From contig CALLAA010000048.1 of assembly GCA_938002955.1 (NCBI GenBank), positions 17,841 through 81,840 on the forward strand: 64,000 nucleotides of DNA, written 5' to 3'. Of the stretch, positions 13,910 to 31,145 are shown in pieces. The translations under genes were made by a program, and so were the position numbers. The stretch comes from an uncultured Acidimicrobiales bacterium. Its GTDB lineage: Bacteria; Actinomycetota; Acidimicrobiia; Acidimicrobiales; SHLQ01. Below the pieces are notes generated by a model. The model was given only the letters and a program-made list of their open reading frames with translations, had not been told where the DNA came from and made no database searches. Position 1 is the stretch's first letter. Each line of letters opens with the position of its first letter.

Positions 13910-13980
13910 CCACGGTCACGAACGAAACGTTGCACGAGCGCCCGAGAAAAACAAAGAAAGCCCAACAGGAGGGGAACCCA

Positions 13981-15003: not shown

Positions 15004-15052
15004 CCCACTGGTTTAGCGCAGCGTTGTTTATCAACGTGTTGTACTGACGTTC

Positions 15053-15094
15053 GGGGGCCGACCCGCAAGGGCTCGGCCCCCAGACGTTTCTTTT
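15053..15094 (+). terminator. intrinsic terminator/attenuator between binding-protein and permease genes
   Basis: GGGGGCCGACCC-GCAA-GGGCTCGGCCCCC (12 pairs, one bulge, GNRA loop) followed by AGACGTTTCTTTT. Confidence 0.55.
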
Positions 15095-15116
15095 AGTTCT
15101 AGGGGGAGAGAAATAG

Positions 15117-17231
15117 ATGTCTGACACTGCCGTCCCGGACGTGGGAAACAGTGACGCAAACGCCGCAGCTGCGGCAGCCGATGCAATGGCTGCAACGCTT
15201 GCCGGAGGGGCCGACGAACGGCTTGCTTATCGAGGAGTGTTCCAACGCCTCTTCGTCCGTCCAGAGATTGGTGCCATCGTCGGCGCCGCTGCGATCTGGG
15301 CTTTCTTTTGGGCCGTCTCACGCGAGTTCGGTACCGCTGGCGGTATGTCGTCGATTCTCGACGTGTCCGCAACGCTCGGCATCATGGCTGTTGCCGTTTC
15401 GCTACTGATGATCGGTGGCGAGTTCGATCTTTCTTCAGGTGCAGCTACCGGCACCTTTGCAATCATCACGATCTTGTTGGTCAAAGACGTCGGCGACCTC
15501 GGCGGTGCTGGCCTCAGTCTGTGGATCGCCATCCCACTATCACTGCTATTTGCTCTCGGCCTCGGCTGGATAAACGGCATGATGGTCGAGAGAACGGGGC
15601 TACCGAGTTTCATTGTCACGCTGGCCACCTTCTTTGTGTTGCGTGGCTTCAAGCTCGGTTTCTCCAAGCTCATCATCGACAACCTCACCGTTGGCCGCAT
15701 CAGTGAAGCTCAAGGCCGCGGCTATGAGTTCTGGGAGCCAATCTTCGCCACGGTCTGGATCCGCAACGAACATCAGCTCGAGGCTCGCGACGCGATCTAC
15801 ACCATTGGCATTCTCGGCGGCCTTGCCCTCTTGGCGTTCGCCGTCGCCGAACTCAACTTCGCCCGACGCGACAAGCTCAACCCAGGCGGTCTTCCGATCT
15901 TCGGTGCAGGTGTCGCTGGTGTGATCGCCGGAATCCTCTACATGCACAACTCCGATGGGGTCAGCGCGAACTCGATCGCTGCGGCGATTATCGGTGTTGC
16001 TGGTCTCGCTGCATTTGTTGGCTTCTGCATGTGGCGCTACGAGCGTCAAGAAGCCGGCTCATTGCAGCTCGATGCTTCCGTATCGAAGCTGCTCGCCGCT
16101 GGTGTCATTGCGTCCGTGCTCGCGATGGCCTTCGCCGTCGTCTTCGACGTCGACTCCCAAGAACCGGTCCTCGATCTGGTTGGCGCCTTGCGTTGGCCAT
16201 TCGTGATCGCCGCTGGGGCCTACGCCGCCTTCCGGGCGTTCCAGAAGAGCGCCGGAGACAGCAACACCCAATCGCAGACCCTGATCAACGTGTCGAGCAT
16301 CGCTGCTGCTTCAGCGTTCACGATGTACGCGTTCATGTTCATGACCACCGAACAGGGACTTCGTTCGATCCTCTTTGGCGTCACGATGCTCGCTGGCCTG
16401 ATCCTGTTGGCTATCGCTGCTGGCAACGCCGGTCGCAATAGTCCAATCACCCGGGGCCTGGTTCTGACGGTGTTCTCGGCTGTGCTCGTGGCGCTTGCCT
16501 TCTTCATCCGGAGCCAATCCGCATCGGTGAAGTTCCGTTCCGAGCTGTTCTCCGTCTTGTTGGTGAGCGCACTGGTGTTCTTCGTCTGGGCGGTGTGCTC
16601 GACGATGTTTACCCAGCGCCGCTTCCAAGAGGCCAAAGCTGATGGGTTCGGCACGACGCTCGCGCAGGTGGGCGGTGCTGCGATCGCAGTCGGAATCATC
16701 ATCAAGTTGCTCTTTACAACGCAGGCAGAGCTCGACGCAGGTATTGCCCGTGCTGGCTTCCGCATCAGCATCTTGTGGTTCCTTGGCTTCTCGCTCTTCG
16801 CAACGTGGCTCCTCGGCCGGACCAAGTTCGGATCGTGGATCTTTGCTGTGGGTGGCAACAAGCAAGCTGCTCGCCAAGTCGGTGTGCCAGCCGCCCGGAC
16901 CAAGACCCAGCTATTCATGATCGTCTCGGTCGCGGCGTGGCTTGTTGGTTTGCTTCTCGCCTTCCGCCTCGACACCGTGCAGTCCGTTGCCGGTAACGGC
17001 CTCGAGTTTGAGTACATCATCGCTGCGGTGGTCGGTGGCACATTGCTCACCGGCGGCTACGGCTCAGCATTCGGTGCAGCGATCGGCGCGATCATCGTCG
17101 CAATGACCAAGCAGGGCATTCCATCGGCCCGCTGGAACTCGGACTGGCGTTTCGCCTTCCTCGGCATCATCTTGCTCACCGCAGTGATTGCCAACAACTT
17201 CATCAAGACCAAAGCGGAGGAGTCCCGATGA
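15117..17231 (+). CDS. CUT2-type ABC permease with large internal multi-TM insertion (704 aa)
   Basis: The N-terminal part ([36 protein letters not shown]) and the C-terminal part ([17 protein letters not shown]..., [13 protein letters not shown]) are RbsC/BPD_transp_2-like. About 370 aa with ~10 hydrophobic helices lie between them. Confidence 0.8.
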
Positions 17232-18043
17232 CCGAAGCTCAAGATCTCGTTGGCGGCGAACAGCCGCTCCTCGAACTCGACGGTATTGGCAAGTTCTACG
17301 GCAACATCATCGCCCTCCAGGGCATCACGACCGAGGTGCGCGCGGGGGAAGTTACCTGCGTGCTCGGGGACAATGGTGCTGGTAAGTCGACCTTCATCAA
17401 GATCCTCGCGGGCGTGCATAAGCACGACGCTGGCGACTTCCGGCTCGAAGGTAAGCCGGTCGACTTCAACTCGCCTCGCGAAGCTCTCGACGCGGGTATC
17501 GCAGCCGTGTATCAGGACCTCGCCATGGTGCCGCTCATGTCGGTATGGCGAAACTTCTTCCTTGGCGCCGAACCAACAAAGGGCGTCTTCCCTGTGCGTT
17601 GGGTCGACAAGCCTGAGGCGAAGCGGATCGCGAAGGAAGAGATGGCCAAGATGGGCATCGATATTCGCGATACCGAACAGCCAGTGGGCACCTTGTCCGG
17701 TGGTGAGCGTCAGTCGGTGGCTATTGCCCGTGCCGTGTACTACGGAGCGAAGGTCCTTATTCTCGATGAGCCGACGTCGGCTCTTGGTGTGAAGCAGTCG
17801 GGTGTTGTCCTGCGTTACATCGTTGAGGCGGCCAAGCGTGGCCTCGGCGTTATTTTCATTACGCACAACCCTGCGCACGCCTACCCGGTGGGCGATCGCT
17901 TTCTCATCCTGAACCGTGGCCAGTCCATGGGTAACTTCGCCAAGGAAGAGATCACCCAGCAAGAGCTCACCCAGCTGATGGCCGGTGGCGCCGAGCTCGA
18001 GCAGCTTCAGCACGAACTCGAAGCCGCTATCGCGGGGAAGTAG
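17228..18043 (+). CDS. ABC transporter ATP-binding protein (single NBD)
   Basis: Walker [10 protein letters not shown], signature LSGGERQ, Walker [13 protein letters not shown] overlap with the permease gene. Confidence 0.9.
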
Positions 18044-18104: not shown

Positions 18105-18908
18105 ATGAACTCGATGCGTCCGACCGTGGCGGATCTTCGTGCCGAAAAGGGCGTGCGTCAGCGTGCCAATGTCTATGTCGAAACGCTCGACGAAGCGCGC
18201 GCTGCGGGCGCCGCGGATATCGGAATCGTCACGGTGCAAGACGCCCTGATGAGCACCGAATTCCGTGATGCTGCTCCGTCGGCGTTCATGGTTGCTGGCC
18301 TCGACTATGGCGTACATGTCACGACTGATGACTATCTTCGGGCGGCGTTCGCGATGATGGCGCTCGGTGCCGACGCGGTGTGGAGTGCGGCGAGTCTCGA
18401 GACGATCGCACGGATGCGGTCTGAGGGAATCGCCGTTGTTGGCCATGTCGGGCTGATCCCGGCACGCCGTACCTGGACGGGTGGCTTTCGAGCGGTTGGC
18501 AAGACCGCCGAAACCGCGATGTCGGTATGGCAGCAGGTTGAGGACTTGACCGAGGCTGGTGCGTTCGCAGCGGAGATCGAAGTGGTTCCCGCCGCGGTCG
18601 CTTCAGCGATTTCAGCCAGGACGTCCCTGTACATGATTTCGATGGGGTCGGGGTCGGGTTGTGACGCCCAGTACTTGTTCTCGACGGACATCTTGGGAAC
18701 CAACCGAGGGCATGTTCCTCGCCATGCCAAGCAGTACCGCAACCTCGCAGCCGAGGAAGACCGCTTGCAGGCCGAGCGTGTTGCGGCGTTTCGTGAGTTC
18801 GCAGCTGACGTTCAGTCGGACGTGTTCTCGGACCCGTCACGGCTCGTTCCGATCGCCGATGACGAGCTTGCGTCGTTCGAGGCGCAACTCAATGGAGACC
18901 ATTCATGA
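18105..18908 (+). CDS. divergent ketopantoate hydroxymethyltransferase (PanB)-family protein
   Basis: GHVGLIPARRTWTGGFRAVGK (cf. PanB GHLGLTPQS..GGYKVQGR), EIEVVP, ISMGSGSGCDAQYL, PRHAKQY. AGGAGG RBS before ATG 18105. Confidence 0.7.
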   Translation: MNSMRPTVADLRAEKGVRQRANVYVETLDEARAAGAADIGIVTVQDALMSTEFRDAAPSAFMVAGLDYGVHVTTDDYLRAAFAMMALGADAVWSAASLETIARMRSEGIAVVGHVGLIPARRTWTGGFRAVGKTAETAMSVWQQVEDLTEAGAFAAEIEVVPAAVASAISARTSLYMISMGSGSGCDAQYLFSTDILGTNRGHVPRHAKQYRNLAAEEDRLQAERVAAFREFAADVQSDVFSDPSRLVPIADDELASFEAQLNGDHS

Positions 18909-19858
18909 CCGAGCTTGAAATTCTGACCTTGGGACGTGTGAGCGTCGACCTCTATGCCGAACAAGTGGGCCAGCCCATGCGGCACGTCACCTCATTCCGC
19001 AAATCGATAGGTGGCACGGCAACAAATGTGGCTGTAGCTGCAGCTCGCCTTGGGCGTAAGGCCGCACTGTGCACGAAGGTCGGCGACGACCAGTTCGGTG
19101 ACTACGTGCGATACGCGCTCGAGCACACCTTCGGTGTCGACAACCGGTTCATCACGACCGATCCGGAGTTGCAGACGCCGCTCGCGTTCGCCGAACTCGA
19201 TCCGCCAGAGGATCCGTCGATCATCTTCTATCGCGAACCGCGAGCCCCCGATCAGAACATCGCAGTTACCGATGTCGATCACGACGTCGTCCGAGACGTA
19301 CCGATTTTTTGGCTTCCTGCATCTCGCTTTTCCGATGAGGTCTCTGCCGAGACCGTTACGGCCCTGCTCGATATTCGTCAGCGCAAGAGCCACACCGTGC
19401 TCGACCTCGATTGGCGTCCAATGTTCTGGGAATCCCCTGAGCAGGCGACCGAAGCCATTGCGCCGATGCTCGATAAGTTCACGATCGCCATCGGCAACAA
19501 GGACGAATGCGAGATTGCGGTAGGGACGCGAGATCTCAACGTCGCCGCGGACCGACTCCTCGAAGCCGGCCTTGAGATGGCGGTGATGAAGCTTGGCGGT
19601 GACGGTGTCATGATCGCCACCGCCGATGGCACCAGAGTTTCGGTGCCGCCGTATCTCGTCGACGTCGTGTCGGGCCTCGGGTCGGGCGATGCGTTCGGCG
19701 GCGCGTTCTGCCACGGACTGCTCGAAGGGTGGGATCCCGAGACGATCATCAAGTGGGGGAATGCCGCAGGAGCGATCGTCGCGAGCCGACTCATGTGCGC
19801 CGACGACATGCCAACCGCCGAAGACATCACCACCCTCCTCGCCGAACGAGATTTGTGA
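18905..19858 (+). CDS. iolC: 5-dehydro-2-deoxygluconokinase (PfkB family)
   Basis: LGRVSVDLYAEQVG..., GGTATNVAVAAARLG, FYREP.APD and GSGDAFGGAF are typical of IolC. ATGA overlap with the upstream gene. Confidence 0.85.
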   Translation: MTELEILTLGRVSVDLYAEQVGQPMRHVTSFRKSIGGTATNVAVAAARLGRKAALCTKVGDDQFGDYVRYALEHTFGVDNRFITTDPELQTPLAFAELDPPEDPSIIFYREPRAPDQNIAVTDVDHDVVRDVPIFWLPASRFSDEVSAETVTALLDIRQRKSHTVLDLDWRPMFWESPEQATEAIAPMLDKFTIAIGNKDECEIAVGTRDLNVAADRLLEAGLEMAVMKLGGDGVMIATADGTRVSVPPYLVDVVSGLGSGDAFGGAFCHGLLEGWDPETIIKWGNAAGAIVASRLMCADDMPTAEDITTLLAERDL

Positions 19859-19896: not shown

Positions 19897-19911
19897 AACG
19901 TATCTCCAGGA

Positions 19912-19956
19912 TTTGTGAGCGTTTTTGCAGGCTCAGCGAGCGCGATCGCTCACAAA
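19912..19956. repeat. 45-bp REP-like element, copy B2
   Basis: TTTGTGAGCGTTTTTGCAGGCTCAGCGAGCGCGATCGCTCACAAA. 10-bp terminal inverted repeats TTTGTGAGCG/CGCTCACAAA. Confidence 0.8.
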
Positions 19957-19970
19957 TGTTTGGGGTGGCG

Positions 19971-20888
19971 ATGACGGTTTTGTGGTGGGTGCGTGGTCGC
20001 CCGGACCATCTTGAATCGGCACACGCCGACCACGGCTTCGACGTGCTCGGCCCGGACCTCGAGTCGCGCGGTGACGCAACGGCGATTCTGGCTGGCGGCG
20101 AGCCCTACACCGCCGAGGTCCTCGACGAACTCCCGAACCTCAAGGTCCTGGCACGTATTGGCATTGGGTACGACGCTGTCGACGTCGACGCTGCAACCGA
20201 GCGCGAAATCATGGTCACCAACACACCAGATGGACCCACCACGTCGACAGCCGAGCACACCATTGCGCTCATGATGGCTGTTGCACACGAGCTGACGGCC
20301 TCGGCGAACCGCCTGCGCTCTGCCACTGGAAACTATGTCTCGCACCAAAACAGCATGGAGCTCAACGGCCGGACGCTCGGGTTGCTCGGCTTCGGTCGGA
20401 TTGGCCAGGCAGTGGCCACCATGGCCGAGGCGATCGGCATGACGGTGTTGATCACCGATCCGGCCTTCGAGAACTCTGTCAGCATCGACGAACTGCTCGA
20501 ACACTCCGACGTGCTCTCGATCCACGCCCCTGCCACACCATCGACGGTCGGCCTTATCGACGCCGATGCGTTACATGCGATGAAGCCGGGTTCGATCCTG
20601 ATCAATTGTGCTCGAGGGCCGATCGTGGTGACGACCGATCTCGTCGCTGCGCTCGAGTCAGGCCACCTCATGGGTGCTGGACTCGATGTTACCGACCCCG
20701 AACCCCTCGACCTCGACCACCCGTTGCTCCACATGGACAACGTGATCGTCACTCCACATATCGCCTCGAACACCACCGCTGGCCGTGCCCGCATGGAACG
20801 CATGGCATTCGAACAAGTCGCACTGGCACTCGCCGGCGAGACACCAACTCAATTGCTCAACCCCGCCGTGCTCACCAACGGCAGCTAG
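19971..20888 (+). CDS. D-isomer-specific 2-hydroxyacid dehydrogenase (PGDH/GyaR-like)
   Basis: NLKVLARIGIGYDAVDVDAA, GRTLGLLGFGRIGQAVA (NAD site), NCARG, TPHIAS. The track ORF's upstream extension crosses the REP copies, so the start was set at ATG 19971. Confidence 0.8.
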   Translation: MTVLWWVRGRPDHLESAHADHGFDVLGPDLESRGDATAILAGGEPYTAEVLDELPNLKVLARIGIGYDAVDVDAATEREIMVTNTPDGPTTSTAEHTIALMMAVAHELTASANRLRSATGNYVSHQNSMELNGRTLGLLGFGRIGQAVATMAEAIGMTVLITDPAFENSVSIDELLEHSDVLSIHAPATPSTVGLIDADALHAMKPGSILINCARGPIVVTTDLVAALESGHLMGAGLDVTDPEPLDLDHPLLHMDNVIVTPHIASNTTAGRARMERMAFEQVALALAGETPTQLLNPAVLTNGS

Positions 20889-20911
20889 ATCTACCAACCA
20901 AGGAAATTGCA

Positions 20912-22084
20912 ATGGACCGTCAACCCCTCAGAATCGCAGTCATCGGCCTCGGCTGGATGGGTCAAGCCCATAGTCGAAGTTATGCCCGCATCCCGCAACT
21001 CTTCGAAGACCGCGAATACAACCCGGTGCTCGCTGTCTGCGCCGACAACATGGAGATGCGCCGCGACCAGGCAATTCATAGCTTCGGATTCGAAGACGCC
21101 GTCGCCGATTGGCGCGACATCATGGACCGAGACGACATCGATGTCGTTACCTGCACGGCGCCGAACATGTTGCATGAAGAGATTTGCGTCGCGGCAGCCG
21201 AGACGGGCAAGGCCATCTTCTGTGAGAAGCCGGTCGGTGGACGCCCAGACCAAACCGTTCGCGCCGAGCGGGCGGCGCGTCATGCTGGGGTCGTGAGCGG
21301 CGTCGGATACAACTATCGATTCGCTCCACTCGTGCAGTATCTGAAGAACCTCATCGAAGACGGGGAGCTCGGCGAAATCACGAACTATCGGGGCCGCTTC
21401 TTCTCGATGTACGGCAGCGATCCAATGGGCTTGCTCAGCTGGCGCTTCAAAGTCGATCAGTCCGGGTATGGCGTGAGCACCGACATTCTTAGTCACTCGA
21501 TGGACCTCGCGCACATGCTCGTCGGACCGATCACCAAGGTGATGGGAATGCAAAAGACGTTCATCACCGAGCGCCCGCTTCCCAAGGAAGGCGGCACCCA
21601 CTACGACCGCGGCGAACCTGGAGATCCGACCGGAGAGGTCACCAACGAGGACTACTTCGGCGCGTTCTGCGAATTCGAAAACGGTGCGATCGGCACCTTT
21701 GAAACCAGCCGAAGCATCATCGGTCCAGAGAGCCAGAACGCATTCGACGTGTACGGCACGAAGGGTGCTGCGAACTGGAACCTCGAGACCATGAACGAAA
21801 TGGGTCTCTTCTTGATGAAGGACCAAGCCCGCGGCTACACGACTGTTCGTGGCGGCGACCGTTACCCGTACCACGGCAACTTTGTCCCCGGTGACGCGAA
21901 CAGCATCGCGTTCGAAGATCTCGTGACCATCGAGGACTACGAGTTCCTGAAGGCTGTTGCCGCAGGCACAAAGCACTCGGCGAGCTTCAAGGAAGCCGTC
22001 GACTACGTGAGTGTGCAGGCCGCGCTCATCAAGTCGACCGAGACCGGAACCTGGCAAGACGTCGTCGACCTGACGGAGGACTGA
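20912..22084 (+). CDS. Gfo/Idh/MocA-family oxidoreductase (390 aa)
   Basis: LRIAVIGLGWMGQAHSRSY..., VTCTAPNMLHEE..., KAIFCEKPVGG. Confidence 0.8.
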   Translation: MDRQPLRIAVIGLGWMGQAHSRSYARIPQLFEDREYNPVLAVCADNMEMRRDQAIHSFGFEDAVADWRDIMDRDDIDVVTCTAPNMLHEEICVAAAETGKAIFCEKPVGGRPDQTVRAERAARHAGVVSGVGYNYRFAPLVQYLKNLIEDGELGEITNYRGRFFSMYGSDPMGLLSWRFKVDQSGYGVSTDILSHSMDLAHMLVGPITKVMGMQKTFITERPLPKEGGTHYDRGEPGDPTGEVTNEDYFGAFCEFENGAIGTFETSRSIIGPESQNAFDVYGTKGAANWNLETMNEMGLFLMKDQARGYTTVRGGDRYPYHGNFVPGDANSIAFEDLVTIEDYEFLKAVAAGTKHSASFKEAVDYVSVQAALIKSTETGTWQDVVDLTED

Positions 22085-22089
22085 ACATC

Positions 22090-23946
22090 ATGACCAACAC
22101 CATTCGACTCACAACCTCGCAAGCGATCGTCAAGTACCTGATCGCCCAAAAGTCTGTCCAACGAGACGGAACCATCGCACCGCTCTTTGGTGGCGTGTAC
22201 GGAATCTTTGGTCATGGCAACGTCACGTCGCTTGGCCATGCGCTCGAACGCGCCAAGGACGAACTGCCCACCTATCGCGGCCAGAGCGAAGAAGGCATGG
22301 CGCTCGCCGGAGTTGCCTATGCCAAGGCGACCCGTCGCCGCCAAATCATGGTTGCGACGAGCTCGGTCGGTCCTGGCGCAACCAACATGGTGACCGCCGC
22401 TGGCGTTGCGCACAGCAACCGTCTTCCGCTGTTGCTGATCAGCGGAGACACGTTTACGAGTCGCATTCCGGATCCTGTTCTGCAGCAGGTCGAGCATTTC
22501 GGTGACCCGACGCAAACCGTGAACGACAGCTTCCGCGCCGTCACCCGGTACTGGGATCGCATTGTGCGCCCCGAGCAGCTCACGAGCTCGCTGCCACACG
22601 CCATCCAGACGATGCTCGATCCGGCCGATTGCGGTCCGGCCTTCATTGGCCTGCCGCAAGATATTGGTGCCGAGGCATGGGACTTCCCCGTCCATTTCTT
22701 CGACGAGGTCGTGCACGATATTGCTCGCCCGCGGGCGGACAAGCGTCAACTCGACAAGGCCATGGAGCTGCTTCGCACCGCCGAAAAGCCATTGATCGTC
22801 GCTGGTGGCGGCGTGCACTACAGCTTGGCGGAGCCTGAGTTGGCCGCGTTTGCGACGGCGCACAACATTCCCGTCGTCGAGACCGTTGCGGGGAAGGCGT
22901 GCATGGAATGGAACCACGCCATGTACGGCGGACCGATCGGTGTTACCGGAGGTACGTCGGCGAACGCGCTGGCCGGTGAAGCTGACGTCGTGCTCGCCGT
23001 CGGGACCCGACTGCTCGACTTCACGACCGGCTCATGGACCGTCTTCAAGAACGAGAAGGTCAAGATCATCGGCCTCAACACGGCGCGATTCGATGCGACC
23101 AAACGCCAATCGATTCCACTCGTCGGTGACGCCAAGGTGACCTTGGCCGAGATGACGTTGGGACTCGGGGACTACCGTGCCCCCGACTCGTGGACGACGA
23201 CCATGGCGACCGAGATCGCCCAGCACAACGCATACATCGACAAGATCGCAGCCAAGGAATCGACGAGTGAAAGTGGCTTGCCGACGTACGCCCAGGTCGT
23301 CGGTGCTGTCGATCGGCTCGCGGATGAGAACACCTTTGCGCTCGCTGCGGCCGGCGGCTTTCCCGGCGAGGTCAACAACGGTTGGCGTGCCAAGCACCTC
23401 AACAGCTTCGACTGTGAGTACGGCTTTAGCTGCATGGGATACGAGACCAGCGGTGGTTGGGGAGCGGCGATGGCCATGCCCGACAAGGACGTGGTGGTCT
23501 TCACCGGTGACGGCTCGTGGATGATGCTTAACAGCGACATCTACAGCTCGGTCATCCACGGTCACAAGATGATCGTCATCGTCTGCGACAACGGCGGATT
23601 CGCGGTCATCAATCGACTGCAGACCAACATGGGCGGCAACCCATACAACAACCTGATCAAGGACAACCCAACGGTGGTCAATCCCGTCGCTGTCGACTTT
23701 GCCAAGCATGCCGAGGCAATGGGCGCCATGAGCGAGACGGTGACGTCGATCGACGATCTTGAAGATGCCTACCGTCGGGCGAAGGCAGCCGACCGTACGT
23801 ACGTCATCTCCCTCGTTACCGATGCGTACAGCTGGACCGAGGGCGGTTCGTTCTGGGAGGTCGGCGTGCCCGAGGTGAGCGAACTCGAGACCGTTCTGGC
23901 CGCCAAGGCCGACATGGTTGAGGGCAAGAAAGAGCAACGACTGTGA
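22090..23946 (+). CDS. iolD: 3D-(3,5/4)-trihydroxycyclohexane-1,2-dione acylhydrolase (ThDP-dependent)
   Basis: MTNTIRLTTSQAIVKYLIAQ..., GIFGHGNV, GPGATNMVTAAG and GDGSWMMLNSD (ThDP motif), with the length typical of IolD. Confidence 0.9.
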   Translation: MTNTIRLTTSQAIVKYLIAQKSVQRDGTIAPLFGGVYGIFGHGNVTSLGHALERAKDELPTYRGQSEEGMALAGVAYAKATRRRQIMVATSSVGPGATNMVTAAGVAHSNRLPLLLISGDTFTSRIPDPVLQQVEHFGDPTQTVNDSFRAVTRYWDRIVRPEQLTSSLPHAIQTMLDPADCGPAFIGLPQDIGAEAWDFPVHFFDEVVHDIARPRADKRQLDKAMELLRTAEKPLIVAGGGVHYSLAEPELAAFATAHNIPVVETVAGKACMEWNHAMYGGPIGVTGGTSANALAGEADVVLAVGTRLLDFTTGSWTVFKNEKVKIIGLNTARFDATKRQSIPLVGDAKVTLAEMTLGLGDYRAPDSWTTTMATEIAQHNAYIDKIAAKESTSESGLPTYAQVVGAVDRLADENTFALAAAGGFPGEVNNGWRAKHLNSFDCEYGFSCMGYETSGGWGAAMAMPDKDVVVFTGDGSWMMLNSDIYSSVIHGHKMIVIVCDNGGFAVINRLQTNMGGNPYNNLIKDNPTVVNPVAVDFAKHAEAMGAMSETVTSIDDLEDAYRRAKAADRTYVISLVTDAYSWTEGGSFWEVGVPEVSELETVLAAKADMVEGKKEQRL

Positions 23947-24022
23947 TGGCCGTTCGCTTCGCTCACCCGCGATGGTTCTCGCCTGAGGGCTCGGTACGTG
24001 GCGTATCGCAGAAGGTCAAACG

Positions 24023-24991
24023 GTGAAACAGGTTGCCGTAATCGGCGCCGGTGGCATGGGGCGTTTCCACGCGGAAACGCTCCTTGCGATACCCGGCGTT
24101 GAAATTGCGGCTGTCTGCGACCCGTTCGAGGAAACGGCTCGCACGGTTGCAGAAGCGGTTCGTGCTCCGTGGAACACAGACCCGGTAGCGGTCGCGTCCG
24201 CTGGGTACGACGGTGTGGTGATTGCATCGCCCGATGACACTCATGCCGACCTGACGTTGGCCGCGCTCGAGGCCGGTAGTCGTGTGTTGTGCGAGAAGCC
24301 GTTGTCGCACGATCTCGCCGGCGCCCGAGCGGTGATTGCGAAAGAGGTGTCGATCGGCGAACGCCGGGTTCAGGTTGGCTTCATGCGTGAGGTCGACCCG
24401 GCGCACGCGGCGTTGGCCGAACAACTCACGGCGCTTGGCCACCTGCACTACTTGCGTTGTACGCATCGCAATACCAACGCCGAGGCCAGACCACCGGCAA
24501 CGGTTTTGGTGCAATCGCTCATCCACGACATCCATACGGTCCATTGGCTCGGCGGCCGCGTGATCGATGTTGATGCACGCGCCATCGAGCGGCCAGGCGG
24601 CCTCGACCATGTTCTGCTGGTATTGCGGCTTGAATCCGGTGCGACCGCCACGGTCGAGTTCAGCGACAATACCTACGCCTATGAGGTCGAGGTTGAGGCG
24701 ACGTCGGTCAACGGCATGGTGGCAACCAGTGCCCCCCAACGGCCGCGGCTTCGGATTGACGGCGACTACCGGACCCCGATTGGCGATGACTGGTTCGGCT
24801 GGTTTGCCGAGGCGTACCGAATTCAGGATCGGCTGTGGGTCGAGTCGATGTCCGCTCCTCAAGCGAGTGGGCCGTCGGCGGTCGATGGGCTCGCAGCCCA
24901 ACTGGTCGCGGAAGCCGCGCTGACCTCGATTGCCGAAGGCCGGGCGGTAGCTGTTGCGCCCGTTGACGTTCCAGAGATGTATCGGCCATGA
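24023..24991 (+). CDS. inositol dehydrogenase-like Gfo/Idh/MocA oxidoreductase (B. subtilis IolG-type)
   Basis: VAVIGAGGMGRFHAE, VLCEKPL, RRVQVGFMRE..., CTHRN. GTG start. Confidence 0.75.
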   Translation: MKQVAVIGAGGMGRFHAETLLAIPGVEIAAVCDPFEETARTVAEAVRAPWNTDPVAVASAGYDGVVIASPDDTHADLTLAALEAGSRVLCEKPLSHDLAGARAVIAKEVSIGERRVQVGFMREVDPAHAALAEQLTALGHLHYLRCTHRNTNAEARPPATVLVQSLIHDIHTVHWLGGRVIDVDARAIERPGGLDHVLLVLRLESGATATVEFSDNTYAYEVEVEATSVNGMVATSAPQRPRLRIDGDYRTPIGDDWFGWFAEAYRIQDRLWVESMSAPQASGPSAVDGLAAQLVAEAALTSIAEGRAVAVAPVDVPEMYRP

Positions 24992-26415
24992 CAGCGACGG
25001 TGCGCGACTACAGCTTGACCGGCGTCGAATCGACGCGTGCGGTAGAGCGTGGTCTCGCCAATGGTCAGTGGTTCCAAGCCGATATCGAACCGGACCGGCT
25101 TCGCGAACTTTCCGTCCGGCAAAACCTGCGGCCGGGTATCGACTTGGTCCTTTGGCTTGCTCTGATCGTCGCCTCCGGAGCTTTTGCCTGGAGTCAGCGA
25201 GGGAGCTGGTGGGCGGTGCCCGGATTCTTTGTGTACGGGACGTTGGTGGGTGGATCGACCGATGCCCGTTGGCATGAACATGGCCATGGGACGGCGTTCC
25301 GTAGCCAATGGCTAAACGATCTCGTGTACTACCCGGCCAGCTTCATGTTGGCTCGAGAGGCCACGTACTGGCGCTGGTCGCACTTTCGCCACCACACCGA
25401 CACGATCATCGTTGGGCGCGATGCAGAGATCATCTTTCCGCGGCCCCCGTCGGTTGCGAAGCTCGCGTGGCTGTTCACCCACCTCGAGGGTGGTAGCGGC
25501 CTGATACGCACGACCGTGAAGCACGCACTCGGTCAATCCGATGACAACATCGACGTGCTCGTGCCCGAAAGCGAACGCGGTCGGGTGTTCCTCGAGGCCC
25601 GAATCTATGTCGCCATCTGGGTCGCCACAATCGTGTGGGCGATCGCCACCCGATCGCTGTACCCACTGCTGCTCATCGGAGGTCCCACGTTCTACGGCGC
25701 TTGGCTCGTGTTGTTCTTCGGGGTAACACAGCACGCAGGTCTGCGCGAAGACGAGCTCGACCATCGCCGCTCGACCCGCACGGTTCTCGTCAATCCGGTG
25801 TTCCGGTTCTTGTATCTCAACATGAACTACCACGTGGAACATCACATGTTCCCAGCGGTGCCGTATTACAACCTTCCTGAGCTGCACGGCGAGATTCGCG
25901 AGCAGTTGGCCGAGCCGAAGCCCGGCATGATTTCGGCGTACAAAGAAATTTTCTACGCGTTTCGAGAACAAGCCAAAGATCCGTCGTGGGAGCTGCCACG
26001 GCACATTCCAGATGTCCCCGGGTGGCGCGGACCCATCGTTCAGGGTTTCGAGTGGGCGGGCGATAGCTCCGTCGACGGCTGGACCGACCTTGGCCCCGCC
26101 GATCTCGCTTCCGGCGCCATGCGTCCGGTCGACGTCGGCGACGCGAAGCTCTTGCTTGCGTGCACCGATACGGGCGACGTCGTGCTCGTCGATCGGATCT
26201 GTACCCACGGTGATGCTGACCTGGCGACCGGAACGATCCTCGGATGTGAGATCGAGTGTCCCAAGCACAACGGACGGTTCGACCTACGCACCGGTGAGGG
26301 AACTCGCCGTCCGATTCAGACCGCGCTGATGACGTACACCGTGCGCACCCGGAACGGTCGACTCGAAACACATATTGCGGCATCGGGCTCAGCTGCCAAT
26401 GGGGAGGAACGATGA
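24988..26415 (+). CDS. fusion of a membrane di-iron histidine-box oxygenase (FA-desaturase/XylM superfamily) and a Rieske [2Fe-2S] ferredoxin
   Basis: His boxes WHEHGHG, HFRHH and NYHVEHHMFP. C-terminal CTHGDADL...ECPKHNGRFDLRTG Rieske motif. ATGA overlaps at both ends. Confidence 0.8.
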   Translation: MTATVRDYSLTGVESTRAVERGLANGQWFQADIEPDRLRELSVRQNLRPGIDLVLWLALIVASGAFAWSQRGSWWAVPGFFVYGTLVGGSTDARWHEHGHGTAFRSQWLNDLVYYPASFMLAREATYWRWSHFRHHTDTIIVGRDAEIIFPRPPSVAKLAWLFTHLEGGSGLIRTTVKHALGQSDDNIDVLVPESERGRVFLEARIYVAIWVATIVWAIATRSLYPLLLIGGPTFYGAWLVLFFGVTQHAGLREDELDHRRSTRTVLVNPVFRFLYLNMNYHVEHHMFPAVPYYNLPELHGEIREQLAEPKPGMISAYKEIFYAFREQAKDPSWELPRHIPDVPGWRGPIVQGFEWAGDSSVDGWTDLGPADLASGAMRPVDVGDAKLLLACTDTGDVVLVDRICTHGDADLATGTILGCEIECPKHNGRFDLRTGEGTRRPIQTALMTYTVRTRNGRLETHIAASGSAANGEER

Positions 26416-27377
26416 GGGTTTGGATCAGTGGCGGAGGTGGCTTTGTCGGCTCGAATATCGTCCGTGCTGCGGTCGAGGCCGGTCACGACGTGCTGACGAC
26501 CGCTCACACCTTCACCCCACCGGAGATCACCCCATACGCGGTCAGTTCGCTCGACGTCACCAACCCCGAATCCGTTGCCATGAGCATCGAGGACTTCGGT
26601 GCCGACGTCGTCATCCACTGCGCGATCATGAACGACTGGGATCGAATGTACGGCGACCGTCACGCCGCTTGGGATGCATATGTCGGCGCGACTCGTGCAA
26701 CCGCCTACGCCGCGGTCGATGTCGACAGCGCCTACGTGCTCGTGTCGACGGACTGGGTCTTTGATGGCACACAGGCAGGAGCCGACGAGGACACGCCCCC
26801 GAATCCGATCAACTTGTACGGAGCGCTGAAGCTTGCGTCGGAAATGGTCGCGCTCGAGGCCGGAGGAGCGGTGGCACGAGTAAGCGGGGTGAACGGCATG
26901 CACCTCGCTCGGCCACAGACACCGAGGTCGCAAGATCGAGGGTTTGGATATTTCGTTGCGAGCATTGTTGACTCGCTTCGTTCCGGACTGCCGTTCACCG
27001 TTTGGGAATCCGACGACATCAACATGATCGCGACGCCATCGCTCGCGCTCGAATGCGGCGAGATCATGATGGCGATCGGCGAGACCAAGTCAACCGGGGT
27101 GTTCCACTGCTGCGGTGCAGACCCGATCACGCGCCGCGAGCTCGCGTTGCTCACCTGTGATGTGTTCGAACTCGACCATGACCTGCTTCGGTTCGGCCCG
27201 CCCGACCCGGCGTCGATGTTGGCCGCTCCCGTTCCCTACGACACGTCGTTATCGACGCCCCGAACCGATCGGGTTCTCGGGCGTCAGGCCACGCCAACAC
27301 GACACCTCATCGATCGATTTAAGAACCAATACTTCGCCGAAATCTCTCGGCCAAAATCATCAGGAGTCTCCACATGA
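26412..27377 (+). CDS. NAD(P)-dependent RmlD-like (extended SDR) reductase/epimerase
   Basis: MRVWISGGGGFVGSNIV..., VIHCA, STDWVFDG and NLYGALKLASE (YxxxK). Confidence 0.7.
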   Translation: MRVWISGGGGFVGSNIVRAAVEAGHDVLTTAHTFTPPEITPYAVSSLDVTNPESVAMSIEDFGADVVIHCAIMNDWDRMYGDRHAAWDAYVGATRATAYAAVDVDSAYVLVSTDWVFDGTQAGADEDTPPNPINLYGALKLASEMVALEAGGAVARVSGVNGMHLARPQTPRSQDRGFGYFVASIVDSLRSGLPFTVWESDDINMIATPSLALECGEIMMAIGETKSTGVFHCCGADPITRRELALLTCDVFELDHDLLRFGPPDPASMLAAPVPYDTSLSTPRTDRVLGRQATPTRHLIDRFKNQYFAEISRPKSSGVST

Positions 27378-28381
27378 CGAATCCGACTATCTCGGTGTTG
27401 GGCACGGGCCGCATCGGCAAGATGCACGCCGAGCTCATTGCACGCCAGGTGCCGGGTCTCGACCTGCACTCGGTGTACGACGTGTACACCGAGGGCGCAC
27501 AGGCTGTTGCCGATGACCTTGGTTGTCACCGTGCCGACAGCGTCGAGGAGATTATGGCGAGCGACGTTGACGCCATAGCGATCTGTACGAGCACCGACAC
27601 CCACGTCGACCTGGTGGTGGCAGCAGCCGAGGCCGGGAAGGCGATTTTCTTGGAGAAGCCGGTATCGCTGAACCTCGAGGAGGTCGATCGGGCTGTCGCC
27701 GCGATCAACGCCACTGGCGTTCCGATTCAGGTTGGCTTCAACCGTCGCTTCGACGCTGCTCACGCAGCTGTCCAGCAAGCGGTTGCCGACGGTGCGGTGG
27801 GCGATGTCCACATGGTCAAGATCACGAGTCGTGACCCGGCCCCGCCGCCCATCGACTACATCAAGGTGTCCGGCGGCATGTTCTGTGACATGACGATCCA
27901 CGACTTTGACATGGCCCGTTTCGTGACTGGCAGCGAGATCGTTGAGGTGTACGCAAAGGCCGCAGTGCGTGTCGATCCAGCGATCGGCGAAGCCGGCGAC
28001 GTCGACACGGCCATGCTGATCCTCACCCACGAAGACGGCACTCTGACCTACATCGATAACAGCCGCCAGGCCGTCTATGGCTACGACCAACGAGTTGAGG
28101 TCTTTGGGTCGGCGGGGATGGCAGCGTCGGAGAATCCTCGCGAACACACCGCCGAGGTGCACACTGCGGCGGGGACTCGCCAACAGAACATTCCGTACTT
28201 CTTTCTCGAGCGTTACATTCCGAGTTACCTCGCGGAGTGGACCGGCTTTGTCGATGGTCTGGCGTCGGGAACGATGCCTGTTGGGATCGACGACGGCCGA
28301 GCGCCGCTCGTCGCCGGACTTGCTGCCTGGAAGAGCTATCGCGAGGGCCGCCCGGTCCGTTGTGAGGAGATCGCACCATGA
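27374..28381 (+). CDS. iolG: myo-inositol 2-dehydrogenase (IdhA/IolG type)
   Basis: ISVLGTGRIGKMHAE, KAIFLEKPV, VGFNRRFD, ITSRDPAPPPIDYIKVSGGMFCDMTIHDFDMARF and YGYDQRVEVFGS closely follow rhizobial IdhA. Confidence 0.85.
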   Translation: MTNPTISVLGTGRIGKMHAELIARQVPGLDLHSVYDVYTEGAQAVADDLGCHRADSVEEIMASDVDAIAICTSTDTHVDLVVAAAEAGKAIFLEKPVSLNLEEVDRAVAAINATGVPIQVGFNRRFDAAHAAVQQAVADGAVGDVHMVKITSRDPAPPPIDYIKVSGGMFCDMTIHDFDMARFVTGSEIVEVYAKAAVRVDPAIGEAGDVDTAMLILTHEDGTLTYIDNSRQAVYGYDQRVEVFGSAGMAASENPREHTAEVHTAAGTRQQNIPYFFLERYIPSYLAEWTGFVDGLASGTMPVGIDDGRAPLVAGLAAWKSYREGRPVRCEEIAP

Positions 28382-29223
28382 GCGACCCGTACGAATTTGG
28401 ATCATTCGCTGGGAAGACTTGTGTCGTCACCGGTGGATCGCAGGGTCTTGGATTTGCTGTTGCCGAGTTGATGAAGGAACGTGGTGCCGAAGCGATCATG
28501 CTCGTCGGACGCGACCAGGCAAAGGGCGAAGCTGCTGCCGCGAGCCTCGATGGCGACGGCTGCACGGTCAGCTTCTTGTCGGCCGACCTCGCAACCACCG
28601 AAGGTGCCGAGCTGGTCGTCTCGACCGTCGACGAGCGCTACGGCATTGTCCACGCCCTTGCGGCGTGTGCTGCGGCGACCTGGCGCGGAACCGTGTGGAA
28701 CACGACCGGCGATATGTGGGACGAGATGTTGGCCGTCAACGTCAAAACCCAAGGGTTGCTGATCACTGGACTGGCCACGATTATGGCCCGCGAAGGTGTT
28801 GCGGGATCGATGGCGCTCGTTGGCTCGATCGCCCATCACGGCGGAATCGGTGAACTGTTCCCGTACGTGGTGGCGAAGCACGCGCTCGAAGCAATGGTTC
28901 GCCACGCGGGCTACTCCCTGCGAATGGAACGCATCCGGGTCAACCTGATCAATCCTGGCTGGATGGACACGCCCGCCGAAGATGGCGTGCAAAAGAAGTT
29001 CCACAATGCACCCGACGATTGGCTGGAAAAGGCTGAGAAAGAACAGCCCTTCGGCCGCCTCTTGAAGCCACAAGAAGTCGCTCGCGGGATCTGCTTCATG
29101 CTGAGCGACGAGTCCGGCATGATGTCGGGCGCATCGATCGACTTCGACCAAACCATGCCGGGTCAAGGCCCAGCGGCACCGTTCGAACCTGTACCTCGAC
29201 ACTTCCCCTGGGAGAACTCATGA
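28378..29223 (+). CDS. classical short-chain dehydrogenase/reductase
   Basis: TGGSQGLG cofactor motif and YVVAKHA (YxxxK). Confidence 0.85.
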   Translation: MSDPYEFGSFAGKTCVVTGGSQGLGFAVAELMKERGAEAIMLVGRDQAKGEAAAASLDGDGCTVSFLSADLATTEGAELVVSTVDERYGIVHALAACAAATWRGTVWNTTGDMWDEMLAVNVKTQGLLITGLATIMAREGVAGSMALVGSIAHHGGIGELFPYVVAKHALEAMVRHAGYSLRMERIRVNLINPGWMDTPAEDGVQKKFHNAPDDWLEKAEKEQPFGRLLKPQEVARGICFMLSDESGMMSGASIDFDQTMPGQGPAAPFEPVPRHFPWENS

Positions 29224-30161
29224 GCAATTCACTAGTCAGCAACACCGGCGGCGATGGGGTGCGCATCGACGTCACCCCCGAGAGCGCCGGCTGGCGTTTC
29301 TTGAGCTTTGCGAACGTGATGCTCGCCGCAGGCCAAAGCCACAGCGATCAGCGCGACGGGCAGGAGACGGCAATCGTGCCGCTCGCCGGGAGCGCAGTGG
29401 TGACCGCAGGAGGCCAAACGTTCGAGATCTCGCGCACCAGCGTGTTCGAGCAGATGCCTCAGATCGTGTACGTGACTCCCGGCGACGAGATGAGTGTTGT
29501 CGCAAGCACCGACTTTGAGTTTGCAATCGGTTCCGCACCGGCGACCGGCATGTACCCCACGCGACTCATTGTGCCCGAGGAGATGAAGAGTGAAGTCCGT
29601 GGTGGTGGCGCGTCGCATCGCCAGGTCAATCATGTTCTCGCGCCACCGATCGACGCGGAACGTCTGATTCTCTACGAGGTGTACGTCCCTCGAGGGATGT
29701 GGTCTGGTTGGGCTCCTCATCGCCACGATGGCGTCGACGGCTCGCCGTACCTGGAGGAGACGTACTTCTTCCGCATGGATCCAGGAAACGGGTTCGGTAT
29801 GCACCGCAACTGGGCGCCAGAGGATGGGTTCGACGAGACGGTCGTGATGCACGACGGCGACACGGTGCTCGTGCCCAAGGGCTTCCATTCTTCGGTCTCG
29901 TGTCCGAGTTCGAACCTGTTCTTCCTGAACTACTTGGCCGGTGAGATGGTCGACAAAGAGCGTTCGACCCCGCCGTGCTTCCACGAGGGGCACACATGGA
30001 TTCACGATGCCTGGGACAACGGTGACGAGGGAGCGTGGACGCAACCGGTCATGCAGACGCCGAACCTGAACAATCCAGGTGGCCTGCCGCTATCGGCGAT
30101 CGACGGCGACGTTCCCGATGACCCGTATCGAGTTTCGGGCACCAAGCCCGCCGACGACTAA
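29220..30161 (+). CDS. iolB: 5-deoxy-glucuronate isomerase
   Basis: Cupin-type pattern: GWRFLSF..., EVRGGG...RQVNHV, GWAPHRHDG and EETYFFRMDP are typical of IolB. Confidence 0.85.
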   Translation: MSNSLVSNTGGDGVRIDVTPESAGWRFLSFANVMLAAGQSHSDQRDGQETAIVPLAGSAVVTAGGQTFEISRTSVFEQMPQIVYVTPGDEMSVVASTDFEFAIGSAPATGMYPTRLIVPEEMKSEVRGGGASHRQVNHVLAPPIDAERLILYEVYVPRGMWSGWAPHRHDGVDGSPYLEETYFFRMDPGNGFGMHRNWAPEDGFDETVVMHDGDTVLVPKGFHSSVSCPSSNLFFLNYLAGEMVDKERSTPPCFHEGHTWIHDAWDNGDEGAWTQPVMQTPNLNNPGGLPLSAIDGDVPDDPYRVSGTKPADD

Positions 30162-30175
30162 GCCACGAGCGCCGC

Positions 30176-30217: not shown

Positions 30218-30257
30218 ACAAAGAATCCGCTTCGAATACCCCCAAGGAATACGAAAT

Positions 30258-31145
30258 ATGAAGGCCATGACCCCCGGAAAGATGCGCGGCATCGACACCC
30301 TCTGCACCGATGAGGGTGTGATTGCGGTGCTCGCCATCGACCATCGAGATTCGCTCCGAGCGGTGTTGCCCGGCGAGGCGACCAACGACGAGCTGATCGA
30401 GTTCAAGATGGAACTGATCCGCGGCGTTGGACCCCAGGCCAGCGGCGTCATGCTCGAGCCCGAGTTCAGTCTGCCGTACGCCCTCGAGCGCGGTGTTCTT
30501 GCCGGAAGCCAAGGGTTTATGGCCGCACTCGAAGCGCAGGGATACATGCAGGACCCGTGGGCCGGGCCAACCCAGATGATGCCGGGCTGGTCTGCGCTCG
30601 ATGCCAAGAAGCTCGGCGCAGGTGCGGCGAAGCTCTTGTTGCCGTACGCCCCGGAGCGTCTCGACCACGCCGAACAGCAGCGTAAGGTCGTTGCCGACTC
30701 CGCTGCGGTCTGTGCCGATCTCGACATGGCCTTGTTGGTCGAGCCCGTTGCCTTCGGGATGAAGGATCATCAGCGGGCAGCGACGGTTCTCGAAACCGTC
30801 CAACAGCTCGCACCGCTGCCGATCGATGTGCTCAAGCTCGAGTTTCCCGGTGACCCGACAAACCCAGCTGGCTGGGCCGACGCATGTGCAGCCGTAAACG
30901 CCGCGTGTGAACAGCCGTGGGTGTTGTTGTCGTCGGGAGTGACCTTTGCCGAGTACAAGGCACAGCTCGAGGTTGCCTTCGACAATGGTTGTTCGGGGTT
31001 CACCGGTGGCCGCGCTATCTGGCGTCCGGCATCGGACGCCAGCCCGATGATGCGCAGTGAGGTGATCAGCGGGATGGTCAGCGATCAGTTCGCAGAGCTT
31101 CGTGCGCTCGCGGTCGCTAAGGCCAAGCCGTGGCGCGAGGTCTAG
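30258..31145 (+). CDS. class I aldolase of the tagatose-1,6-bisphosphate aldolase (LacD) family; probable DKGP aldolase of the iol pathway
   Basis: GVIAVLAIDHRDSL (cf. LacD ALAFDQRGAL), DVLKLEFP (Schiff-base Lys region), LSSGV and GGRAIW. Confidence 0.75.
   Translation: MKAMTPGKMRGIDTLCTDEGVIAVLAIDHRDSLRAVLPGEATNDELIEFKMELIRGVGPQASGVMLEPEFSLPYALERGVLAGSQGFMAALEAQGYMQDPWAGPTQMMPGWSALDAKKLGAGAAKLLLPYAPERLDHAEQQRKVVADSAAVCADLDMALLVEPVAFGMKDHQRAATVLETVQQLAPLPIDVLKLEFPGDPTNPAGWADACAAVNAACEQPWVLLSSGVTFAEYKAQLEVAFDNGCSGFTGGRAIWRPASDASPMMRSEVISGMVSDQFAELRALAVAKAKPWREV

Follow-up and report, generated by a model that had tools for sequence, protein, structure and literature searches.

The window analysed here is a 64,000-nucleotide (64-kb) stretch of contig CALLAA010000048.1, from an uncultured Acidimicrobiales bacterium. 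On its + strand, inside an inositol catabolic (iol) operon, lies an open reading frame (ORF) whose predicted product joins a membrane di-iron oxygenase module resembling MocD of the rhizobial rhizopine (moc) locus to a Rieske [2Fe-2S] ferredoxin domain resembling MocE. The comparisons described below suggest that this fusion protein probably demethylates O-methylated cyclitols. The gene and its parts are:

24988..26415, + strand: MocD-MocE-like fusion gene, ATG start, 475 residues
residues 1-~345 of the fusion protein: MocD-like membrane di-iron oxygenase module
25273..25287, + strand: His box 1, HEHGH (residues 96-100; H96, H100)
25381..25395, + strand: His box 2, HFRHH (residues 132-136; H132, H135, H136)
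25831..25845, + strand: His box 3, HVEHH (residues 282-286; H282, H285, H286)
residues ~346-365: linker between the two modules (~20 residues)
26083..26370, + strand: Rieske [2Fe-2S] ferredoxin domain (residues ~366-461)
26200-26208, + strand: Rieske ligands C405/H407 (CTH, residues 405-407)
26257-26268, + strand: Rieske ligands C424/H427 (CPKH, residues 424-427)

A preliminary description of the locus had proposed that one 475-residue ORF combines desaturase-type histidine boxes with a C-terminal Rieske module. The quoted motifs are present and Pfam recognises both modules, each far above its gathering score: FA_desaturase (PF00487) at residues 73-316 (E 1.6e-38, 133 bits) and Rieske (PF00355) at residues 371-450 (E 8e-12, 45 bits). 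The G+C content of the three codon positions (64/48/72%, in a window of 61.5% G+C) marks the ORF as a genuine gene of the window. An identical protein is also encoded on an independent 8-kb public contig, and all 120 best database homologues (51-84% identity) carry both domains within one ORF; thus, the fusion is not an assembly artefact. Conservation of the metal ligands was examined by aligning 81 relatives that cover all architectures, 74 of which have a Rieske domain. The eight histidines of the three boxes are invariant in 81 of 81, as are H249, H259 and H300 outside the boxes, with H179 kept in 79. The four Rieske ligands are retained in 73-74 of the 74, so that their loss in orthologues, named in the preliminary description as a sign against its proposal, is not what is seen.

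The N-terminal module has four predicted transmembrane helices. Hydropathy and an AlphaFold (AF2) model of the fusion protein (pLDDT 85.7, pTM 0.73) agree in placing two helical hairpins at residues ~47-91 and ~194-249, the usual desaturase topology; in the model, a low-confidence linker (353-358) leads into a beta-rich C-terminal domain. As the number of membrane passes is even, the topology known for the superfamily predicts a cytoplasmic location of the N-terminus as well as of the His boxes and the Rieske domain. In Foldseek comparisons the C-domain superimposes on the ferredoxin of 3-nitrotoluene dioxygenase (5bok; TM 0.92, root-mean-square deviation 1.2 A), and the best PDB sequence matches of the whole protein are Rieske ferredoxins only (2qpz, 2e-13). 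With its CxH...CxxH ligands, a Rieske fold of ~100 residues and no catalytic mononuclear-iron part, the domain belongs with the ferredoxin components; since its best matches are those of aromatic dioxygenases, it is predicted to act as an electron carrier and not as an oxygenase alpha subunit. No PDB relative of the N-module is detectable by sequence at E <= 0.01. When this module was modelled alone, its nearest fold in Foldseek was the desaturase-like subunit of the algal Ycf2/Orf2971-FtsHi complex (TM ~0.6), followed at a distance by AlkB and AlkB-AlkG (TM 0.38-0.47; AlkB E 2e-3) and then SCD1. Hence, of the "XylM-type" label given to the oxygenase at the outset, membership of the desaturase superfamily stands and the rest is loose, AlkB being only a distant structural neighbour (TM 0.47) and the partner being a Rieske domain in place of a rubredoxin or XylA-type protein. 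The hydroxylase models CrtR and GntB match the fusion weakly. Public annotation names the protein "fatty acid desaturase", and many two-domain proteins (e.g. P0005, P0007, P0011) bear the JGI name "Na+-transporting NADH:ubiquinone oxidoreductase subunit F" while having no NqrF-like domain; this name has probably spread from the three-domain forms described below, which have an NqrF/FNR-like reductase domain.

The gene string of which the fusion is part runs on the + strand from 13016 to 31145, divergent from a LacI-type regulator. ABC denotes ATP-binding cassette, and SBP substrate-binding protein:

11774..12760, - strand: LacI-family regulator, divergent from the operon
13016..13909, + strand: IolE-like (MocC-like) TIM barrel (TIGR04379, 166 bits, below the cutoff of 290)
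13930..18043, + strand: sugar/cyclitol ABC transporter (SBP, double-length permease, ATPase), made up of the next three genes
13930-15003, + strand: ABC transporter SBP (best NCBIfam match the rhizopine SBP NF052284, 194 bits, below the cutoff of 420)
15117-17231, + strand: double-length ABC permease, 704 residues (BPD_transp_2, two matched stretches)
17228-18043, + strand: ABC ATPase
18105..18908, + strand: PanB-like hydroxymethyltransferase paralogue (PF02548, 7.5e-38; the ATG start after AAGGAGG was chosen)
18905..19858, + strand: IolC, 5-dehydro-2-deoxygluconokinase (TIGR04382, 344 bits, cutoff 300)
19956..20888, + strand: D-2-hydroxyacid dehydrogenase family protein, conserved in 12 related iol loci
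20912..22084, + strand: Gfo/Idh/MocA dehydrogenase, levoglucosan-dehydrogenase-like, with 61-67% identical orthologues in 18 loci
22090..23946, + strand: IolD (TIGR04377, 817 bits, cutoff 715)
24023..24991, + strand: Gfo/Idh/MocA dehydrogenase, weakly IolG-like (160 bits, cutoff 355), translationally coupled to the fusion
26412..27377, + strand: RmlD-like NAD(P)-dependent reductase/epimerase, directly after the fusion
27374..28381, + strand: IolG, inositol 2-dehydrogenase (TIGR04380, 415 bits, cutoff 355)
28378..29223, + strand: SDR oxidoreductase, PRK06198 type
29220..30161, + strand: IolB (TIGR04378, 223 bits, cutoff 205)
30258..31145, + strand: DeoC/LacD-family aldolase, IolJ-like, end of the operon

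IolG, IolD, IolB and IolC all pass their NCBIfam equivalog cutoffs; the IolE-like protein and the SBP fall below theirs. ATGA stop/start overlaps are present at all five positions reported initially (24988, 26412, 27374, 28378 and 29220), and the neighbours described around them were recovered as well (two inositol dehydrogenases, the RmlD-like reductase, the SDR and IolB), the first of the dehydrogenases being only weakly IolG-like. Such coupling is commonplace in high-G+C operons and is not special in itself. The MocA-, MocC- and MocB-like partners claimed for the fusion can likewise be identified, in the Gfo/Idh/MocA proteins, the IolE-like TIM barrel (30% identical to the IolE/MocC of the authentic moc locus, L096, introduced below) and the SBP, respectively. 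The operon contains no aminotransferase, as had been noticed, and no deaminase. Of the non-canonical genes around the fusion, the RmlD-like one recurs most consistently, with orthologues (47-53% identical) in 12 loci of the genomic sample as well as in L092-L095. The dehydrogenase at 24023-24991 was considered as a conserved partner and rejected: a true orthologue lies upstream of the fusion only in the closest relatives, L094/L095, the ~30% matches found in the census being IolG paralogues. In these loci, which represent the 66%-identical relative of the window, an opposite-strand PAP2-family phosphatase gene (L094:11383-12135, L095:2813-3565) separates the fusion from the RmlD-like gene, breaking there the translational coupling seen in the window. 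The fused double-length permease recurs in L092 and L093 (635-751 residues).

Genes flanking the operon are unrelated to it (xylA and PhyH upstream; LLM oxidoreductase, RPE65 oxygenase and acyl-CoA genes downstream). Just beyond the LacI gene lie, on the - strand, a true xylose isomerase (10392-11723; TIGR02630, 663 bits) and a PhyH-family dioxygenase (9484-10326). Xylose-isomerase-like genes recur near the oxygenase family, as an XylA2_C-domain protein together with an FGGY kinase, both following the iol aldolase of L093 (15174-17963), and as a 344-residue "xylose isomerase" without a Pfam match in Burkholderia (L084:6546-7580). Locus L016, a two-domain locus with CUT1-type sugar ABC genes, has a PhyH gene nearby as well. 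Directly downstream of the operon, on the opposite strand, are an F420-type LLM oxidoreductase (31156-32091, -), which fits an actinobacterial origin, and an RPE65-family, carotenoid-cleavage-type oxygenase (32067-33848, -), neither of which is linked to the operon in relatives.

Census of the family showed that the fusion is abundant, not rare. More than 5,000 clusters at 90% identity match the whole fusion protein, and the species-representative genome set contains at least 591 stretches encoding a relative. Using the oxygenase module alone, 3,367 clusters at 50% identity were matched, 234 of them at E < 1e-30, with fused and unfused lengths interleaved. Three architectures can be distinguished. 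Two-domain proteins of ~470 residues, 48-84% identical to the window protein, form the window's own clade and are found in Acidimicrobiia. Three-domain proteins of ~760 residues, 41-45% identical to the window protein, carry an additional C-terminal FNR-type reductase domain (PF00175) and occur in Verrucomicrobiota, Acidobacteriota, Bacteroidales, Chloroflexota and Planctomycetes (e.g. P0124; L024, L026-L080; L045:9923-12235); judging from their domain content, they would be fully self-sufficient membrane monooxygenases. In Alpha- and Betaproteobacteria, the system is split among a desaturase gene (~350-390 residues), a MocE-family ferredoxin gene and, usually, a gene for an HcaD-type flavin adenine dinucleotide (FAD) reductase. 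The two-domain clade is separate from the three-domain clade in a neighbour-joining tree, a rough distance tree without support values that is suited to qualitative use only. P0145, P0172 and P0182, two-domain proteins as well, branch far away in the wider family, in the company of unfused forms, which suggests that the desaturase-Rieske fusion arose more than once. Two oddities were encountered among the fusions: in L025 (9908-11341) the ORF breaks inside the Rieske domain just past CTH, reflecting a frameshift, a pseudogene or an assembly error, and a 5.7-kb contig binned in a "Bifidobacterium breve" metagenome-assembled genome (L017, CALQEM020000224.1) bears an Acidimicrobiia-type two-domain fusion, 50% identical to that of the window, which is probably a binning contaminant.

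Architectures differ sharply in their surroundings. Scoring as an iol cluster any locus with at least three of IolB/C/D/G/aldolase within 10 kb, 15 of the 25 two-domain loci of the genomic sample lie in such clusters, spread over several sub-branches of the clade; one further locus has two iol genes on a short contig. All three additional long two-domain contigs, chosen independently, are also in iol clusters. The concern that the fusion might be found mostly outside cyclitol clusters is thus not borne out. No iol cluster surrounds any of the 49 three-domain loci. The genes that recur around them encode aldose-1-epimerase (directly upstream in 20 of 62 non-iol loci), sugar MFS and RhaT-like transporters, AraC regulators, TIM-barrel proteins and SDRs; the epimerase, sugar transporters and TIM-barrel proteins suggest methylated aldoses as substrates of these forms. 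In split systems a LacI regulator is typical, and so is a location next to iolG, a TIM-barrel protein and a sugar ABC transporter, as in Nitratireductor and Burkholderia; those of Aestuarium and Marivivens directly adjoin iolG-iolC-iolD-iolE. These arrangements run counter to the initial statement that the rhizobial moc locus is the sole precedent for such a pairing near iol genes.

As an authentic moc reference we used locus L096, on plasmid pPR13E04 of Rhizobium indicum. Here iolE, Gfo/Idh/MocA genes and an SBP gene lie divergent from the genes for MocR, the desaturase, MocE and the FAD reductase; genes for a DegT-type aminotransferase and an MFS protein are found downstream. With 739 bits (cutoff 650), the regulator is above threshold for the NCBIfam equivalog "rhizopine catabolism transcriptional regulator MocR", as is the ferredoxin for the MocE family model TIGR02377 (178 bits, cutoff 136). 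The window N-module is 42.4% identical to MocD of this locus over 344 residues (E 1e-90), and the Rieske domain 40% identical to MocE over 65 residues. The designation MocD-MocE-like is upheld by these identities on both sides, with the reservation that the Rieske domain lies under the MocE-family cutoff. Window and moc locus share the two protein families in the same order, the Gfo/Idh/MocA dehydrogenases, the IolE-type TIM barrel, the sugar SBP, the link to the iol pathway and a PanB-like paralogue (58.5% identical, see below). They differ in that the window has its modules fused in one polypeptide, lacks the MocF reductase, has LacI in place of the pyridoxal phosphate (PLP)-type MocR, and has neither amine-handling genes nor purU; moreover, the fusion is found inside a complete iol operon of an Acidimicrobiia genome.

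Uncharacterised too are the split mocDE(F)-like modules under LacI control that occur on Rhizobium/Sinorhizobium/Agrobacterium plasmids and in Burkholderia, Nitratireductor, Aestuarium and Marivivens. Their MocD paralogues are 52-81% identical to MocD of L096 and 45-49% to the window N-module, and split-system ferredoxins score 171-178 bits on the MocE model. LacI, the iolG or iol-cluster neighbourhood, a TIM-barrel partner and a PanB-like partner are common to these modules and the window; unlike the window, they consist of separate genes, usually with the HcaD-type reductase, and their TIM-barrel partner is of a different subfamily. The idea that this TIM barrel might be an IolI-type isomerase, pointing to pinitol/D-chiro-inositol, was dropped: the split-module proteins have no NCBIfam assignment, and the window TIM barrel resembles IolE more than it resembles them. 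In P. syringae pathovars of woody hosts, mocDEF is located beside xylA2, without mocCABR (PMC5132102). The three-domain relatives share with the window the oxygenase and Rieske modules, with all ligands conserved, and differ from it in having their own NAD(P)H reductase domain and sugar-gene neighbours. Among better-known enzymes, the natural AlkB-AlkG fusion (PDB 8f6t, 8sbb) embodies the same concept of a membrane His-box di-iron hydroxylase covalently joined to a one-electron carrier; its carrier is a rubredoxin, however, its substrate an alkane, and its fold match to the N-module distant (TMq 0.38-0.47). Soluble O-demethylating oxygenases such as guaiacol demethylase (7qwt) and VanAB would lead to the same outcome as is proposed here, being ferredoxin-fed and formaldehyde-yielding, on a wholly different catalytic scaffold; in the window protein the Rieske domain would serve as carrier only. 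Another soluble O-demethylating oxygenase is the P450 6-O-methyl-galactose demethylase of marine Bacteroidetes.

Perhaps the most telling clue to the reaction comes from the PanB-like gene, which the preliminary description overlooked, as it did the self-sufficient three-domain relatives, and which provides the best evidence for release of a one-carbon (C1) unit. The window protein is not a true PanB, scoring 117 and 96 bits on PanB models whose cutoffs are 272 and 207, respectively. With the PanB-like genes found after MocDEF in L096, L089 and L081 it shares 58.5-60% identity, and all PanB-like genes following MocDEF score 100-128 bits on the PanB models, below the cutoffs. In L096 the order is MocDEF, the PanB-like gene (14759-16495) and then purU; in Agrobacterium HAMBI 105, MocDEF and the PanB-like gene are followed by purU and folD. 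A PanB-like gene directly after MocDEF is also found in Rhizobium, S. meliloti pSymB, Labrys, Aestuarium and Marivivens, and altogether in 8 of the 16 split loci sampled; in Nitratireductor, purU alone comes after MocF. Loci L096, L082 and L089 have purU and/or folD alongside the oxygenase. Across phyla, the PanB-like subfamily is better conserved (51-60%) than the oxygenase; its further members are:

L089:14677-17305: PanB-like subfamily member
L081:12194-13009: PanB-like subfamily member
L087:10407-11204: PanB-like subfamily member
L088:14398-15198: PanB-like subfamily member
L094:2065-2874: PanB-like subfamily member

To our knowledge, this subfamily is not part of the published moc model. 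PanB shifts a hydroxymethyl unit between 5,10-methylene-tetrahydrofolate and a carbon beside a carbonyl, and FolD together with PurU oxidises methylene-tetrahydrofolate to formate. The recurrent linkage of PanB-like, purU and folD genes with MocDE(F) argues for release of a C1 unit to tetrahydrofolate, and the simplest reading is that the oxygenase reaction frees a C1 unit at the formaldehyde level that is channelled into the folate pool; oxidative demethylation would yield such a unit. Presence of the same module in a locus whose substrate, 3-O-methyl-scyllo-inosamine, is an O-methyl ether favours O-demethylation over attack on a C-methyl group.

Taken together, the domain architecture, the conservation of ligands, the homology to MocD and MocE, the embedding in an iol operon and the recurrent C1-gene linkage make it probable, if by no means assured, that the fusion is an O-methyl-cyclitol demethylase of the MocD/MocE type that feeds the iol pathway and draws on a reductase encoded elsewhere. 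What we infer from these features is the class of substrate, the chemistry of O-demethylation, the part played by the PanB-like protein, the orientation towards the cytoplasm and the nature of the reductase. The operon's ABC transporter would import an O-methylated cyclitol (pinitol, ononitol, bornesitol or a marine analogue). A ferredoxin reductase dependent on NAD(P)H and encoded outside the 64-kb window would reduce the tethered Rieske cluster, which would hand single electrons to the di-iron centre held by the N-module on the cytoplasmic face. O2-dependent hydroxylation of the methyl group would then give a hemiacetal, and from it the free cyclitol and a formaldehyde-level C1 unit, the latter passed to tetrahydrofolate by the PanB-like paralogue. 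The extra Gfo/Idh/MocA, RmlD-like and SDR enzymes might oxidise and epimerise the demethylated cyclitol, whose product would enter the IolG-IolE-IolD-IolB-IolC-aldolase route. The suggestion of a partly self-sufficient methyl-cyclitol demethylase made in the preliminary description thus survives the comparisons run. MocDEF has been described as a "ferredoxin oxygenase" for 3-O-methyl-scyllo-inosamine in the model of Bahar et al. 1998 (as cited in PMC5789663, PMC10107442 and PMC5132102), and mocDEF is rhizopine-inducible (PMC10107442). Circumstantial support comes from R. mesoamericanum, in which mocDEF homologues were induced 1.5-2.1-fold by Mimosa exudate having pinitol (145 uM) as its main component (PMC5789663).

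A number of observations weigh against this assignment. The fused members are known from sequence, and the demethylase role of MocDEF is itself a model drawn from genetics (Bahar 1998, as cited in PMC5789663). BLAST searches of the 64 kb with MocF, and with the FNR domain taken from the three-domain forms, found no MocF-like or FNR-like reductase, in keeping with the first reading of the sequence; extended to the two-domain loci, the search gave none in any iol locus and one weak match (24%) in a non-iol locus. Homologues of purU and folD are likewise missing from the 64-kb window. On the MocE model TIGR02377 the Rieske domain reaches 54.5 bits, below the cutoff of 136 and comparable to its HcaC-type match (55.9). 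Ten of the 25 two-domain loci fall outside iol clusters, and only the window and its 66%-identical relative L094, in the same operon position, combine a two-domain fusion with the PanB-like gene, which is not obligatory for the clade. The window has no IolI-type TIM-barrel partner, which removes the specific argument for pinitol/D-chiro-inositol. Finally, Erwinia degrades pinitol with no demethylase required, so that demethylation is not the sole bacterial route (PMC9788770).

Other substrates and reactions deserve consideration. The native chemistry of PanB, transfer of a C-C-bonded hydroxymethyl group beside a carbonyl, is what would be needed if the substrates were C-methyl-cyclitols such as laminitol and mytilitol of marine algae: the C-methyl would be hydroxylated to C-hydroxymethyl, a dehydrogenase would make the neighbouring ketone, and reverse PanB chemistry would move the hydroxymethyl to tetrahydrofolate, leaving an inosose. 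Many carriers are marine or sponge-associated, and the operon has several extra dehydrogenases. We nevertheless consider this route unlikely, as the same MocDEF-PanB-like-purU order serves an O-methyl ether in the rhizopine locus, MocDEF-PanB-like modules also occur in soil and plant rhizobia and Agrobacterium, where C-methyl inositols are not expected, and PanB normally binds an alpha-keto acid via Mg2+, a cyclitol being without a carboxylate. Nor is it any likelier that the enzyme hydroxylates or desaturates a ring C-H of an unmethylated cyclitol (quercitol-type deoxy-inositols, cyclohexanetetrols, conduritols), giving inositols or inososes for the iol pathway without C1 release. The superfamily does include hydroxylases and desaturases, as PF00487 and the CrtR and GntB matches recall, the PanB-like gene is missing from most two-domain iol loci, and the extra reductases and dehydrogenases would suit cyclitol tailoring; yet the nearest functionally assigned relatives, MocD, are tied to a methyl ether, and the PanB-like/purU/folD linkage, including the PanB-like gene of the window operon, would be left unexplained.

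It is less likely still that the iol placement reflects co-regulation only and that the substrate is an O-methylated aldose or uronic acid of plant, algal or bacterial origin. The three-domain relatives, with their epimerase, transporter and TIM-barrel isomerase neighbours and never iol genes, the sugar ABC genes of L016 and the true xylA adjoining the window operon's LacI gene all lean that way; the window gene is, however, ATGA-coupled amid iol genes, and the iol placement is kept across sub-branches of a clade separate from the three-domain one. Identity to the authentic MocD and the rhizopine SBP as best family match of the window SBP would fit an oxygenase for rhizopine itself (3-O-methyl-scyllo-inosamine) or another aminocyclitol. 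This is very improbable given the LacI regulator in place of a PLP-type MocR, an operon with no gene for aminotransferase or deaminase, an SBP far under its equivalog cutoff, and carriers that are Acidimicrobiia largely from marine, sponge or soil metagenomes, rhizopines being rare in nature (PMC6668481). Least credible of all is an ordinary acyl-lipid desaturase or hydroxylase lying in the operon by chance. It would account for the Pfam domain and for the public name, but even DesB, the lipid-desaturase equivalog that matches best, gives 34 bits where the cutoff is 500, so that acyl-lipid desaturases are not the closest characterised homologues, a point on which the preliminary description had been prepared to yield; moreover, the catabolic sugar/cyclitol context is conserved across phyla, and overlapping stop and start codons couple the fusion to the iol genes.

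Along with O-demethylation of cyclitols as the favoured activity, a bolder idea may be entertained, to which we attach a rather low probability: that oxygenase and PanB-like protein form an undescribed two-step, formaldehyde-free demethylation system for methylated cyclitols (O-methyl, perhaps even C-methyl). The di-iron enzyme would hydroxylate the methyl group and the PanB-like enzyme would move the hydroxymethyl directly to tetrahydrofolate, with FolD and PurU completing the route where present. If true, the pair would constitute a missing bacterial turnover route for pinitol-type osmolytes, in a system that comes in three architectures and reaches at least six phyla, with abundant Acidimicrobiia of the sea and of sponges among its carriers.

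What is known in this field is the MocD/E/F oxygenase system, itself known only genetically; what is new is the fused form, distinguished by its covalent fusion, its occurrence in a different phylum and its placement in a full iol operon under LacI without amine-handling genes. Novelty is limited by the domain combination being already visible to automated annotation and by the family being common. The iolCGDEB genes have been reported in marine and sponge Acidimicrobiia, the fusion gene being unmentioned (PMC12008989). Full-text literature searches retrieved no paper on the fused protein, its substrate or its PanB-like partner, and no characterised bacterial pinitol or ononitol demethylase of the MocD-like type; more broadly, no methyl-inositol demethylating bacterial enzyme has been characterised in the literature searched, MocDEF for the rare rhizopine being the sole model. 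In legumes, conifers, mangroves and some algae, few soluble carbon compounds are more abundant than methylated inositols such as pinitol, ononitol and quebrachitol. The window offers a compact and clearly bounded candidate, with catalyst and electron carrier in one polypeptide, in a canonical iol operon with transporter, LacI regulator and C1-handling partner, which makes the question directly testable. Fused and self-sufficient forms would be attractive as simple biocatalysts and as parts for rhizopine/cyclitol signalling circuits. The family-wide picture and the folate-linked C1 module raise the interest of the locus above that of an ordinary annotation: with three fusion states, the PanB-like/purU/folD module and the three-domain forms, what had been a rhizobial curiosity becomes a widespread family.

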